This document shows, one piece after another, positions 28,440-42,377 of a DNA stretch of 64,000 bases (positions within the stretch are counted from its first letter, which is position 1; each line of letters opens with the position of its first letter). A model generated the notes under the pieces. The model saw only the letters and a program-made list of their open reading frames with translations. It was not told where the DNA came from and did no database searches. The stretch is from Fimbriimonadales bacterium (GTDB taxonomy: Bacteria; Armatimonadota; Fimbriimonadia; Fimbriimonadales; GBS-DC). The translations under genes were made by a program, and so were the position numbers. Where the stretch lies: the NCBI GenBank assembly GCA_026003075.1, contig BPGO01000006.1, positions 7,928 to 71,927 of the forward strand. The letters run 5' to 3'.

Positions 28440-28772
28440 CGCGGCTTCGCCACGCTCGCCTGTGCGGATGCGGATGACCTCTTCCACCTCACTGATGAAG
28501 ATCTTTCCGTCGCCGATTTCGCCTGTTTGCGCCGCTTCGATGATCACGCTCACTATCTCGTCCACGCGCTCGTCGGGCGCGACGATTTCCAACTTAATCT
28601 TGGGCAGGAGGTTTGTGGTGTAGGTACTGCCGCGATATTTTTCGGTGTGTCCTTGTTGACGCCCGAATCCGCGCACATCGGTAATCGTCATTCCGTAGAC
28701 GCCGATGTCGTTCAGTGCCTCTTTGACCGCCTCGAATCGGATGGGTCGGATGATTGCCTCGATGCGTTTCAT
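28434..28772 (-). CDS. glnB: nitrogen regulatory protein P-II
   Basis: 112 aa. [51 protein letters not shown] includes the T-loop Tyr. The start overlaps the stop of the upstream gene as ATGA. Confidence 0.93.
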
Positions 28773-29521
28773 CGCTTGGACGCTTTCAGTTTACCCAACA
28801 TAAAATCGCGTAGCAGTGGGGGCACATCCGTACCGATTAGGTCTATGCTGGCGTCCCACAAGACTTCCCACATGGTCGGCAGGTCGGCAGTTGCCCAAAA
28901 GCGCAGTTGATAGTCCTTGGCGTGGGCTTGTTGTACTATCTGGCGCAGTTTCGCGTGTTCGTCTTCGGGGAACGCGCCGCGCCCGTTCCAGCGGAACAGA
29001 CGCGCCCAGTTATCGCTCACCCACGGCATGAGGGTAGGCGGCGCGTCGCCGCTTAGGTCGCTGAGCCTGCCGTCGTAGCCGAGGAAGCGCACCCGCTCGC
29101 GCTGCAACTGCTCCAGCGGGATACGATTGCCTGACAGCACTGCCCGGACAGCGCGTTCCACCTTACGACTGCCCTCATAGCGTGTCACAAGGTCGTCGTA
29201 CCGTTCCAGCGTTTTGTGGAGCGCGTTATAGGTGGCTTGTGCCTCGCTTTTGACATCGATAAGTAGATAGAAGTAGGGCGCGTTGGGGTACACCGTGCCG
29301 CCAAACTGCTTTACACGCGCTCGCAACGGTTCCAGGTAGAGCGATTCCAAAGTGCGTTCCGGGCGCAACTCGCGTGGCTCGTGTCCGACCAGCAGTTTGC
29401 CGTCTATTAGAAAGATGTCTGCCTCCACGCTGCAGAACCCACACTCCAGCGCGTCCTGCAGGGGGCGCTGGCGCCAGTAGTCGTTATGTGAGTGCGCGCG
29501 GGGCAGTGGGATGGGCATCAT
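28769..29521 (-). CDS. PI-PLC X-domain-like phosphodiesterase (Ca-dependent phosphoinositide phospholipase C-like family), copy 1
   Basis: [41 protein letters not shown] is the HSHNDY...EAD signature of this family. Start taken at MMPIPL (29521), because the longer ORF overlaps the upstream gene. Confidence 0.65.
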
Positions 29522-29538
29522 AGAGATCGCGTGTTGGA

Positions 29539-30258
29539 TTACTGAGGTGGCTTTGGGGGCGAGGCAGGCGCCGCGCGCAAGATATGCACGCGCACCTTGC
29601 GCCGACCGAAGTGGAGCGCCTGTTGGCGAGTGGCGAAGCACAGGTCGATTTTGTGTCCGCGGATGGCGCGCCCGGTGTCGGCGGCGATTGCCATGCCGTA
29701 GCCCTCGATATACAGCACCGTGCCGAGCGGAATGACGCGCGGATCCACGGCTACTAAGCCATAGCCTGCGGGCAGCCCACTGGCGGTGTAGCCCGAGCCT
29801 GTGCCGCCGCCGCTTCGATGGGGCGTATAGGCGGTGGCGTGCATCTCCACTACTTTTGTCGTGCGGAAAGATGCGCCTCTGCCCACGGCGCCACGCGAGG
29901 CGATATTCCCGTGCACGCCGATTTCGTAAATGCGTGGTTGCGGTGGCTCCAGCGTCTGCTCCTCTATCTTCACACGCCGAACCGCTTTCCCGTTGCGATA
30001 GTACACCCGATAGATGACGAGTTTCTCGCCCGGTTTGCCCTCGGCTTTCAGCACCTTATGGCGCGGGGGTAAGCGCCGATTCACTTCGAACAAGGTCGGC
30101 GGCGGCGTGAGTTCGCGCCGCTCCTCAATCTTAACCGTCTCTTTTTGATCGTTGCGAGGCTTATCCGCACAACCGAGCGCCCAGAGCGCCACGATACCCA
30201 AGCTCACCAACAGCCATCGCCACGATCCACCCCTGTTAGCGTTCCTTCGCTGTTGCAT
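29539..30258 (-). CDS. lipoprotein with G5 and 3D (MltA-like barrel) domains, copy 1
   Basis: Lipobox LWALGC. G5-like segment KVLKAEGKPGEKLVIYRVYYRNGK. 3D domain ATAYT...SGLPAGYGLVAVDPRVIPLGTVLYIEGYGMAIAADTG..IRGHKIDL. GGGAGG RBS. Confidence 0.8.
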   Translation of the reverse strand: MQQRRNANRGGSWRWLLVSLGIVALWALGCADKPRNDQKETVKIEERRELTPPPTLFEVNRRLPPRHKVLKAEGKPGEKLVIYRVYYRNGKAVRRVKIEEQTLEPPQPRIYEIGVHGNIASRGAVGRGASFRTTKVVEMHATAYTPHRSGGGTGSGYTASGLPAGYGLVAVDPRVIPLGTVLYIEGYGMAIAADTGRAIRGHKIDLCFATRQQALHFGRRKVRVHILRAAPASPPKPPQ

Positions 30259-30458
30259 AGTTGACCTCCCTTTGCGAAACCGCTACAGGCTCCGCGAAGT
30301 GTCGCCCAGGTTTGGACGGGCGTAGTATACCCGATGTCCACAAAAAAGTGAAAAACGCCCTCTATCCTTGTCCGCTTTTGGAGCGATTTCGAGTCTTTAA
30401 TGGCAGATGATACAACATACTGCTGGCATCGAAGATACCAAGGTGCAGGAGGTAAATC

Positions 30459-39844: not shown

Positions 39845-39922
39845 TCAGTCGGTCTTGATTGCATCGCGAAGTACGCTATGGGATTGAATCGAGCTCGCTC
39901 TCCAGGTAAAATTGTTCTGTCT

Positions 39923-41374
39923 ATGAAAACCATCGTTATCGTCGGTGCGGGGATGGGGGGGTTAGCCACCGCTGCCCGACTGGCAACAGCAGGGTACGAC
40001 GTTGCTGTGTTCGAAGCGCGCTCGCAGGTCGGAGGGCGCATCGGGGAACTGCGACGCGACGGCTATCGGTTCGACATGGGGCCCACCCTCCTGATGATGC
40101 TCGAACCCCTCGAGCGGTTGTTCAAAGACCTCCATCGACGCGTAGAAGATTACTTAGAGCTGGTACTGATTGACCCCTCGTATCGCGTCTATTTCGGCGA
40201 CGGCACGGTGTTCGATTCCAGTCCGAATATCGCGCGGATGGTGCGCGAGATCGCCCGCAAGATAAGCCCCGACGAGGCGCCCGGCTACTTGCGCTTGATG
40301 GGCGACTTGAGCGCGATGTATCATGCTGTAGTGCCTGCCTTCGTGCGTAAGCAGTATCACGGCTTGGGCGACCTATTCACCCCCTACCAGATCGGGCTGC
40401 TGCTGCGCCATCGGTTGCTCGGCAACTTGTGGAAGCGTGTGGGACGCTATGTGCGCGACCCGCGCCTGCGGATGCTTTTCTCGTTCCAAACGATGTATTT
40501 GGGGTTGTCGCCGAAAGATGCGCTGTGGGTGTATGGTGTGCTGACCTATATGGAGTCGGGCGAGGGGGTGTGGTATCCGCGTGGGGGGATGCATCGCCTG
40601 CCCGAAGCGATTGCCCAGATTGCCCAAGAAGAGGGCGCACGCATCTACCTCAATCATCGCGTGGCGGAAGTGCTGATTGAAGACGGGCGCGCGGTGGGTG
40701 TGCGCCTGGAATCGGGCGAGGTGCTGAAAGCCGACGAGGTGGTCATCAACACCGATGCACCGACCGCGTATCGCGAACTGCTGCCGCCTACGCCCTACGC
40801 TCAACGCGCCTTCAAAAACTCCTGCAGCGCGTTGATGTTTTATATTGGCTACACGGAACCCCTGCCCCACCAACTCCATCATAATGTCTACTTCAGTCGC
40901 GATTTCGAGGCGAACCTGCGCGAACTGTTTGAGCAGAACCGCGTGCCCAGCGACCCCTCGTTTTACACATGCCTTTCTAACCGCACCGATCCTGACGATG
41001 CGCCGCCAGGCTGTGAGAACCTGTATGTGTTGGTTCCTGTGCCCAACCTTACAGGTGAGGATGCACGCGAGGCTGCTCCCCGCGTGTTGGAAACTGTTCT
41101 GCAGCGTGTGGGGCTTCAGCGCGAGAAGATACAGTTCGTCGAGACACTCACCCCGCACGAGTGGCAAGCGATGGGCTTATGGCAGGGCGCCGCGTTCGGG
41201 ATTGCGCATACCTTTTTCCAGTCCACGGCATTTCGCCCGTCGGTGCAAACGCCGTTCCGGGACTGCTACCTGGTGGGGGCAAGCACGCAACCGGGCAACG
41301 GGATCCCGATGACGCTCATCTCGGCGGAGTTGGTTGCCGAGCGCATCCTGAAAAAGGGGCGCGGGAAGGGGTGA
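39923..41374 (+). CDS. crtI: phytoene desaturase family oxidoreductase, copy 2
   Basis: Identical to 33407-34858 except for a synonymous CTA/CTT change at 40477. Confidence 0.8.
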   Translation: MKTIVIVGAGMGGLATAARLATAGYDVAVFEARSQVGGRIGELRRDGYRFDMGPTLLMMLEPLERLFKDLHRRVEDYLELVLIDPSYRVYFGDGTVFDSSPNIARMVREIARKISPDEAPGYLRLMGDLSAMYHAVVPAFVRKQYHGLGDLFTPYQIGLLLRHRLLGNLWKRVGRYVRDPRLRMLFSFQTMYLGLSPKDALWVYGVLTYMESGEGVWYPRGGMHRLPEAIAQIAQEEGARIYLNHRVAEVLIEDGRAVGVRLESGEVLKADEVVINTDAPTAYRELLPPTPYAQRAFKNSCSALMFYIGYTEPLPHQLHHNVYFSRDFEANLRELFEQNRVPSDPSFYTCLSNRTDPDDAPPGCENLYVLVPVPNLTGEDAREAAPRVLETVLQRVGLQREKIQFVETLTPHEWQAMGLWQGAAFGIAHTFFQSTAFRPSVQTPFRDCYLVGASTQPGNGIPMTLISAELVAERILKKGRGKG

Positions 41375-41638
41375 GTGATTGGTAGACAAGACAGGTGCAC
41401 ACTCGGTAGCTTGTAACCACGCGAGATCTCTACAGAAGGCGCTGCCCCCATCCCCAGCAGGAAGGTGAGAGCCCGAAGGTGTAAGAATCAGCATTTCGGG
41501 AGCCGCACTGCCTTGCCCAACCATTTTGAGGCGCGAGTGGCGCAGGATTGAAGTGAATGCGCTTCCCATCGGTTGGATTCTAATATACGACGATAGCTTT
41601 CTCAACACGGTAAGCAGCCATGGAACCTGGGTATCGTC

Positions 41639-42377
41639 ATGGACAATCCCTCCACGATGCGTGGATGGCGCGCCAAGTTGCAGAAGCGATGGGCGAACCA
41701 CGCGACTCTGCCGTTGAGCGAGGCGGAGCGGCGGTTCTTACGCGCCGTCGCCGAGACTCTACAGCGCACCCTCAACGCGGAATCTGTGATTCTGTTTGGC
41801 TCGGCGGCGCGCAGCGAAGCCACGCCAAAAAGCGACATCGATTTGCTAATTATTGCGTCGGTATCAGTCGACTTCTATCAGCAGATGGCAGCGGCGCGAC
41901 GCGCTCTACGCCTGGAGCCGTGGCTGAGCGTGGCGCGACACGATTGGAATCGGATACACCGCAACCTCAGCGAGGAAGATTACTCCGCCGCCGGATTTTT
42001 CTTACAGCAAAGCCTCGAAAAGTACCTCAAGGCATTCTACCCAACAGGGTTGGCAGCTGCGCAAGATTGACGACCTTGAAGCACTTTTGGATGAAGCGGT
42101 CACATTCCTACCTGCCCTTGCGCACTACGACGATCTGTGCGAGCGCGTATTGGGCGACTACTTCGCCGTGCGCGTGGCATCCTCACGATACGAGTACCGA
42201 CCAGCTTACCACAACCACTTCCGTTGCTGGCAAGCTTTGGGCAAGCATTGGCGCATCGCGAGAAACACCGAACCGCCGCCTACCATCGATTCACGGTATT
42301 CTGCAAAGTCGGGCACAAGCAGCAGAATCAGACGCAGGCCCGCGACCTACCTCTCGGAAACCGCAGTGGACTTTTAA
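41639..42377 (+). pseudogene. frameshifted fusion of a minimal nucleotidyltransferase (MNT) domain and a HEPN domain
   Basis: NTase motif LFGSAARSEATPKSDIDLLI, followed by the HEPN-like helix AAGFFLQQSLEKYLKAF. The HEPN homology then continues in the +1 frame ([36 protein letters not shown]) after about 42040. Confidence 0.6.

Follow-up and report, generated by a model that had tools for sequence, protein, structure and literature searches.

A probable homology-independent tandem duplication of 6,516 bp on a hot spring Fimbriimonadales contig

A segment of 6,516 bp occurs twice, head to tail, in the 64,000-nt stretch of DNA analysed here (the window), and we interpret it, with a probability of roughly 0.7, as a real, recent, homology-independent direct tandem duplication in an uncultured thermophilic member of the Fimbriimonadales (Armatimonadota, GBS-DC) from the Katase hot spring. 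A direct position-by-position comparison (s[i] against s[i+6516] for all i from 28,696 to 35,211) found 6,515 of the 6,516 aligned positions identical, with zero indels across the 6.5 kb; the two copies are adjacent, in direct orientation and in register, and the coordinates proposed in an earlier note on this DNA proved exact to the base (Table 1). The sole difference between the copies, A at 33,961 versus T at 40,477, was likewise already in that note, and the full comparison added no further mismatch. It is the third base of a leucine codon (CTA versus CTT, synonymous), namely codon 185 of the crtI-family gene as counted from its annotated start at 33,407; the site is four-fold degenerate and is occupied by G in most relatives. 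The window contains no Ns, and the duplication lies at least 22 kb away from either window end.

Table 1. Features of the duplicated segment and its edges (window coordinates).
Feature	Copy 1 or only copy	Copy 2	Strand	Remarks
Copy 1 of the 6,516-bp unit	28,696-35,211			identical to 35,212-41,727 except A at 33,961
Copy 2 of the 6,516-bp unit		35,212-41,727		identical to copy 1 except T at 40,477
glnB (P-II, 112 aa), intact	28,434-28,772		-	Pfam P-II, E = 5.5e-34; left breakpoint after nt 77
PLC/GDPD-superfamily phosphodiesterase-like, 250 aa (putative)	28,769-29,521	35,285-36,037	-	stop overlaps glnB start (ATGA)
G5 + 3D domain protein	29,539-30,258	36,055-36,774	-	Pfam 3D, 1.2e-18; G5, 2.6e-12
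PEP-CTERM protein	30,459-31,148	36,975-37,664	+	profile match
Porin O/P-like outer-membrane protein, 345 aa	31,219-32,256	37,735-38,772	-	Porin_O_P, 5e-8
IS5-family element, ~857 bp	32,472-33,328	38,988-39,844	+	15-bp terminal inverted repeats (GAGGCTGTTTAGGAA); truncated transposase
CrtI-family phytoene desaturase-like, 483 aa	33,407-34,858	39,923-41,374	+	TIGR02734 crtI_fam, 429 bits; carries the A/T difference
Novel junction, ...GAGCGAGGCGGA|TAGACGCCGATG...	35,211/35,212			MNT gene nt 89 joined to glnB nt 77
Chimeric glnB' ORF, 55 aa	35,121-35,288		-	25 P-II residues, then 30 residues antisense through the MNT stub
MNT gene 5' stub, 39-aa ORF	35,123-35,242		+	29 codons + 2 nt of MNT, then antisense glnB
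Full MNT nucleotidyltransferase (+ partial HEPN) gene	41,639-42,070		+	Polbeta/NTP_transf_2; HEPN profile positions 2-43 of 117

All five genes are intact ORFs, together with their upstream regions, in both copies, and profile searches returned the gene content that had been claimed for the unit (a PLC-like, a G5/3D, a PEP-CTERM, a porin and a CrtI-family gene, plus an IS). The CrtI-family assignment exceeds the TIGR02734 cut-off of 238 bits, and the porin gene call of 345 aa is present in both NCBI and Logan. The PLC/GDPD label of the 250-aa protein (the length of its annotated form) is a putative one, derived only from the database names of its homologues (4,354, many of them named by NCBI as PI-specific PLC/GDPD family) and from a weak match to the GDPD_2 profile (E = 0.18); the search for a PDB sequence match was negative.

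The end of one unit and the start of the next meet in a single novel junction, distal end to proximal start, without any shared sequence. Positions 28,695 and 35,212 both mismatch their own +6516 partners, so that the run of matches equals the period exactly and the junction microhomology is 0 nt, as the earlier note had held; there are no inserted bases. Within ±60 nt, no direct repeat of 7 nt or longer is common to the two breakpoint regions, and a search for repeats, hairpins and shared motifs at the breakpoints gave just one 8-nt inverted match, expected by chance. Both breakpoints are intragenic, and the gene coordinates bear out the positions given for them earlier: 77 nt of the 5' end of glnB and 89 nt of the MNT gene are inside the unit. 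The downstream gene had been described as MNT-HEPN; both the MNT and a partial HEPN profile do match, with the refinement that a frameshift at ~42,040 splits off the HEPN part, which goes on in another frame. Translation shows the 55-codon chimeric P-II ORF predicted at the junction, and the NCBI entry for the contig also lists it as a protein, in a cluster of one member; the predicted ATGA coupling is present, with the start codon of the ORF overlapping the TGA of the second PLC-like gene. Because the T-loop is missing, this product is presumed to be non-functional.

We propose that a single illegitimate, homology-free joining fused nt 89 of the MNT gene with nt 77 of glnB. End joining at a broken sister chromosome and template switching during replication are both candidate mechanisms, and the sequence fits them alike. 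Either would yield the order left flank, unit, unit, right flank, with two dead stubs at the junction; no gene is lost, since glnB survives intact on the left side of the duplication and the MNT gene on the right. Each of the five complete genes is doubled together with its upstream region, as is one IS5-type element, and both copies of the genes are presumably expressed. Bacterial duplications with no flanking repeat and with 0-1 bp of junction microhomology are documented (bioRxiv 10.64898/2026.05.22.727201).

A repeat-mediated origin, with unequal homologous exchange between IS copies or between direct repeats of another kind, appears extremely improbable. The window does hold three IS5-type copies in direct orientation, one of them outside the unit (18,803-19,668), and the IS reported inside the unit is present, as an IS5-family element whose transposase is truncated at the C-terminus (transpos_IS5_3 profile positions 38-188 of 258 only). 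On the other hand, this element is internal, with 3,776 nt separating it from the left breakpoint and 1,883 nt from the right, so the unit boundaries carry no IS, and no direct repeat of at least 7 nt is common to the breakpoint regions. Had the IS copies at 18.8 kb and 32.5 kb recombined, the unit would measure 13.7 kb and its junction would carry an IS, contrary to observation. The earlier argument against a simple IS- or homology-mediated origin is thus upheld, and repeat-mediated (IS/rrn/REP) duplication was rejected on the junction sequence.

Comparison of the locus with related genomes, suggested earlier as a check, points to a single-copy ancestral state. On ~30 related Fimbriimonadales contigs, among them one (L127) with the same flanking MTase and MjaI genes, the G5/3D, PLC-like and glnB genes are each present in single copy; these relatives are of other species, with a best nucleotide identity of 89-92%. 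Scans of genome and metagenome collections with the CrtI and PLC-like proteins returned other species only (DNA identity ≤92%), all single copy, and no same-species comparator was found in those collections. The glnB protein is 98% identical to a JP3_11 protein, and the exact protein is present in NCBI nr.

The strain itself could be traced to a sequencing run. A Logan contig from DRR290133, a PacBio HiFi metagenome, is 100% identical to positions 29,966-32,378 of the window, which shows that the strain is present in this run; the exact PEP-CTERM protein is encoded on a Logan contig of the same run (L125). We link DRR290133 to the Katase hot spring study, in which the read N50 was 10,544 bp, the library was size-selected at 5-30 kb, and assembly was by metaFlye 2.8.3 with no scaffolding step described. 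The deposited contig probably comes from that metaFlye assembly. The proteins of the window are all on one NCBI contig of 169,921 bp.

This provenance bears on the possibility that the second copy arose during assembly or library preparation and is present in no genome, which we regard as unlikely. Two routes can be envisaged: a single chimeric HiFi molecule, produced by head-to-tail ligation of two overlapping fragments from this locus, or a loop of the assembly graph that was wrongly resolved where coverage was thin and strains were mixed. Arbitrary intragenic breakpoints without microhomology are the commonest result of a random join (for zero microhomology, (3/4)^2 = 0.56), and real junctions seem more often to share a few bases. 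The flanks contain eight apparent +1 consensus errors, a sign that parts of the contig are based on very few reads, and strain microdiversity (a Logan contig differs from the window by 3 substitutions over 2.9 kb, i.e. a strain polymorphism of ~0.1%) could supply the A/T difference. Independent sightings of the junction are also lacking: a 26-mer across it had 0 matches in the metagenome contig collection, look-ups for the exact product were negative, and the protein cluster has its one member.

Several observations weigh against an artefact. The site is mid-contig, at least 22 kb from the window ends and with no Ns, and is therefore neither a contig-end overlap nor a gap join; HiFi reads at an N50 of 10.5 kb can span the 6.5-kb unit. 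Read-overlap assemblers do not create junctions that none of the reads contains, and we infer that the junction has read support. By a rough estimate, a ligation chimera that unites two fragments of one 10-kb locus in the same orientation would be expected far less than once per run in a low-abundance genome, and a single poor read would show some indels over 6.5 kb. Overall, the HiFi reads, the probable metaFlye origin and the gapless mid-contig site reduce the worry about an assembly artefact but do not remove it.

Known false duplications in assemblies (untrimmed contig or circularisation overlaps, haplotype duplications) likewise show near-identical copies, arbitrary intragenic breakpoints, no microhomology, a unit size near the read length and a lone mismatch. 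They differ from the present case, which is mid-contig and gapless and comes from a repeat-graph assembler working on accurate long reads, with no concatenation of overlapping contigs. An untrimmed overlap at a contig end or scaffold join was rejected for this feature (no Ns; internal on a 169,921-bp contig), and an untrimmed circularisation overlap was ruled out as well, the feature being internal to a linear MAG contig of 170 kb.

The duplication might also be real and yet a rare, transient variant in one or a few cells that the assembler followed, with a single copy in the dominant genotype; it would then have no bearing on dosage or adaptation. Tandem duplications in bacteria are common at low frequency and are quickly lost by recombination between the copies; with the signs of low local coverage a few reads could have set the assembly path, and all ~30 related contigs are single copy. 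Against this, Flye by default unrolls loops with near-flank coverage to one copy, so that two copies, if retained, would point to raised depth and to reads spanning the unit; the A/T difference, if real, also argues for some persistence. We consider such a variant rather improbable, and an artefact or a single-molecule variant, taken jointly, a minority possibility of some substance.

Logan contigs provided an indirect proxy for depth, which gave no significant signal: exact proteins were found on them for 2 of 5 genes of the unit and for 1 of 9 flanking genes (Fisher p about 0.27). No exact product of the chimeric ORF, of glnB, of the G5/3D gene or of the crtI gene (the last taken one codon short of the annotated start) was present on public contigs. 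The partial products guessed for k=31 de Bruijn contigs ending exactly at the breakpoints (glnB residues 17-112 and MNT residues 21-143) were not on record, an absence of little weight, the Logan coverage of this strain being fragmentary.

Within the favoured reading of a real and recent duplication, the age of the event and its fate can be considered separately. A truly new duplication should have identical copies, and the one difference needs either age, a consensus error or strain polymorphism. It is conceivable, if doubtful, that the duplication is fixed or at high frequency and held by selection for the dosage of the envelope and carotenoid genes, with the copies starting to diverge; this would amount to the birth of a gene family caught in the wild, by way of a homology-free event of the end-joining type. 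Tandem duplications also appear, and last for a time, in the absence of selection. Nothing in the evidence obtained here supports the earlier suggestion that this could be a very recent adaptive amplification.

The type of event is already known and introduces no new mechanism or system. RecA-independent short-junction duplications in Salmonella, at E. coli lac, at Acinetobacter baylyi cat and in Pseudomonas fluorescens SBW25 are likewise direct repeats in which a contiguous chromosomal segment, a few kb long or longer, is joined head to tail at one novel junction, with no flanking repeats, no gene lost and truncated stubs where the copies meet. Their microhomology is 0 to a few bp (with 0-1 bp cases in bioRxiv 10.64898/2026.05.22.727201), and here it is 0. 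Those duplications were obtained under laboratory selection, whereas the present one comes from the metagenome assembly of an uncultured organism and has one base differing between its copies. Duplications mediated by IS, rrn or REP sequences resemble it in their tandem product and in nearby IS copies, and differ in the repeat that is missing here from both boundaries and from the junction. If real, the present case offers a clean example, from nature, of homology-free tandem duplication in an uncultured thermophile, caught by long-read metagenomics, and such examples help to estimate how often homology-free duplications reach appreciable frequency outside the laboratory. For users of the MAG, neither the annotated 55-aa 'P-II' protein nor the doubled gene counts should be taken at face value before a check against the reads.

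The surrounding region is otherwise plastic, in keeping with a real duplication: besides three IS copies it contains an IS remnant and truncated genes, and its gene order is rearranged relative to relatives. A giant gene at 21.4-26.0 kb was considered as a decaying region; compared with an intact homologue it carries seven frameshifts within 2.7 kb, and because all seven are 1-nt insertions, decay was rejected in favour of consensus errors. The MNT gene probably contains a further +1 insertion, at 42,040. Uncorrected errors of this kind disrupt one real gene on this contig at the least, and probably two; they point to thin local coverage, so that very few reads may underlie the junction. Neither the Rfam nor the tRNA scan of the window gave a match. 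The 14-mer at the junction, GGCGGATAGACGCC, is found again at 51,829, a recurrence that we judge to be coincidental.

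Direct base-by-base comparison of window positions 28696-35211 and 35212-41727 showed that the two segments agree in register over 6,516 bases with a single mismatch (A at 33961 versus T at 40477), which bears out in every detail the head-to-tail repeat and the sole, synonymous difference described in the earlier note. A near-identical repeat of 6,516 bp is beyond chance, and there are no Ns in the window. The outer bases (28695 and 35212) differ from their partners at +6516; the identical run equals the period exactly, and therefore the junction (35211/35212) has zero bases of microhomology, as had been claimed, and zero inserted bases. 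The breakpoints placed 77 nt into glnB and 89 nt into the MNT nucleotidyltransferase gene agree with the ORF coordinates, and the 55-codon chimeric P-II peptide predicted at the junction was confirmed as ORF 35121-35288. It lies opposite a 39-aa MNT stub ORF and includes 25 genuine P-II residues but no T-loop.

Because both a flanking repeat and microhomology are absent, the joint of the unit is illegitimate. A repeat-mediated origin, against which the earlier note had argued in its IS- and homology-mediated forms, is excluded by the junction sequence, and we regard it as extremely improbable. A preprint describes bacterial duplications that lack a recombination signature, show 0-1 bp of microhomology and are ascribed to template switching during replication or to end joining of the Ku/LigD type (bioRxiv 10.64898/2026.05.22.727201). 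Both routes are candidates for the unit, whose sequence is compatible with either. Tandem duplication by illegitimate recombination is already well known, and the case in the window is one more instance. A junction-spanning 14-mer (GGCGGATAGACGCC) recurs at 51829-51842, probably by coincidence.

The gene content of the unit (see table) was derived from the ORF listing combined with Pfam and NCBIfam scans. The upstream regions of all five complete genes lie inside the unit and contain promoter-like sites; if the structure is real, the dosage of all five is doubled, and an adaptive reading is possible. The PLC-like label is based on a weak GDPD_2 match (E=0.18) and on the NCBI names of many homologues, with no sequence match in PDB. 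In the crtI-family gene the mismatch falls on the third position of a Leu codon (CTA/CTT), a four-fold degenerate site occupied by G in most relatives. It can reflect a mutation after the duplication (in which case the two copies would have been maintained for a long time), a strain polymorphism caught in the consensus or a residual consensus error, and this single synonymous difference is unusable as a clock.

Features of the duplicated unit (first copy, unless stated) and of the genes at its breakpoints
Feature	Coordinates	Strand	Remarks
glnB (P-II)	28434-28772	minus	first 77 nt only inside unit
PLC/GDPD-superfamily protein, 250 aa	28769-29521	minus	TGA overlaps glnB ATG
G5+3D protein	29539-30258	minus	
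PEP-CTERM protein	30459-31148	plus	
Porin, O/P-type	31219-32256	minus	
IS5-family element, 857 bp	32472-33328		15-bp terminal inverted repeats; transposase without C-terminal third
CrtI-family desaturase	33407-34858	plus	TIGR02734, 429 bits
MNT nucleotidyltransferase gene	41639-42070 (full copy)		first 89 nt inside unit

A CrtI scan of species-representative genomes placed the window among thermophilic Fimbriimonadales of the phylum Armatimonadota. In the closest relative, MAG JP3_11 (94-98% protein identity), glnB, the PLC-like gene, G5/3D, porin and crtI each occur once on the same contig. When metagenomes were scanned with the PLC-like protein, ~30 contigs were found to carry G5/3D, the PLC-like gene and glnB once each. 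Their order (28434-30258, minus strand, in the window) is kept in ~30 Fimbriimonadales contigs (including L014, L003, L018, L081-L100, L127 and L128), and in them the start of glnB adjoins or overlaps the stop of the PLC-like gene. A PLC/GDPD-like phosphodiesterase is an unusual neighbour for a P-II signalling protein. L127, a contig from the public Logan collection with 89-92% nucleotide identity to the window, also shares the left flank; its genes run in the order porin, PEP-CTERM, G5/3D, PLC-like, glnB, N6/N4 methyltransferase, MjaI-type endonuclease and a 1,527-aa M28/MacB/FtsX protein, every one in single copy. No same-species sequence was found in the scans, and the single-copy form of the exact strain was thus not seen. 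In other relatives flhA follows crtI, while in the window it is 15 kb off, adjoining another IS copy; this broken order implies that the locus was rearranged earlier. The glnB-methyltransferase gap (28060-28434, ~375 nt), missing from L127 and L128, holds no more than the initial ~105 codons for a protein that is 740 aa long in the related contig L003, and is therefore a truncated gene remnant.

Exact-sequence look-ups found the window proteins, including the 55-aa chimera, in NCBI nr, all on one 169,921-bp contig. Of the Logan contigs from this run of origin, DRR290133, one matches window 29966-32378 at 100% identity and another matches 43141-46001 with three substitutions (43850, 43854 and 44274), which point either to closely related coexisting strains (~0.1% divergence) or to errors of the consensus within the anti-sigma factor gene. 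DRR290133 is a PacBio HiFi metagenome (PMC11646566), cited in a paper in which the Katase hot spring study is referenced as well. That study reported 2.7 million HiFi reads (N50 10,544 bp), size selection of 5-30 kb, assembly by metaFlye 2.8.3, binning without scaffolding and, in a supplementary table, several GBS-DC MAGs (GC 0.588-0.591, 12-129x coverage) (PMC9671151). Their GC is similar to that of the window, and relatives of the window IS protein bear KatS3mg016 and KatS3mg017 names; we infer that the window belongs to one of these MAGs. The classic source of false duplications, overlap left untrimmed where a contig ends or is circularised, was rejected, as the duplication lies at least 22 kb from the window ends, within a 170-kb linear contig, and contains no gap.

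Judging from the assembled sequence, the duplication is probably real and present at appreciable frequency (probability of about 0.7). Repeat-graph assemblers working with accurate long reads make contigs of read sequence, and a double pass through a loop requires reads carrying that path; the reported Katase read lengths are enough for a 6.5-kb unit. An artefact, with no second copy in any genome, is rather unlikely: a ligation chimera of two same-locus fragments would give the same structure, including zero microhomology, but by a rough estimate far fewer than one is expected per run for a low-abundance genome. That the duplication is real but confined to a rare variant appears improbable. 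Weighing against a real and dominant duplication are the failure of exact chimera look-ups and of a junction search in the metagenome contig collection to find the junction elsewhere, the strain microdiversity in the run (~0.1%) and local problems of contig quality.

A giant gene at 21431-26018 (minus strand; M28 peptidase, MacB-like and FtsX-like) is split across frames, its L127 homologue being intact (1,527 aa). Within 2.7 kb it has seven 1-nt insertions relative to the latter, and no deletion; the insertions are at about 25125, 25006, 24989, 24813, 24480, 23722 (beside a G7 run) and 22414. Indels all in the +1 direction are the signature of thin-coverage consensus error, not of gene decay. 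These frameshifts are most likely uncorrected errors in a thinly covered stretch, and the gene is probably not a pseudogene; the assembly path in this region may therefore have been settled by a few reads. The MNT-HEPN gene (41639-42377, plus strand) is frameshifted at about 42040, where a CCC run appears to have gained a C; the remainder of the HEPN domain is read in a different frame, towards the CcrM-like methyltransferase gene. In practice, the duplication finding serves mainly to flag the MAG annotation.

The IS5-family element (~860 bp, copies ~95% identical) also occurs at 18803-19668 and 38988-39844, with a remnant at 14538-14720 adjoining a truncated deacetylase gene (196 aa versus 303 aa in relatives). 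Its terminal inverted repeats are perfect, and the missing third of the transposase is replaced by a GC-rich palindrome, GGGGTACGGCATGCCGTACCC, in two copies. The ~95% identity of the copies suggests that the element is non-autonomous and is mobilised in trans. Three DNA N6/N4 methyltransferase genes occur within 24 kb (19691-20650, 26083-28015 and 42137-43537), one fused to an SNase-like domain and partnered with an MjaI-type endonuclease, and one CcrM-like with a RAMA domain, adjoining the MNT-HEPN gene. Together the three genes enclose the duplicated segment, in a region that resembles an island of defence and plasticity. At 47315-47712, in the 5' part of a long ORF ending in SufBD domains, a 45-47-nt G-rich unit is repeated in tandem ~8.7 times (88% matches); the coding-frame model scored this stretch as non-coding.
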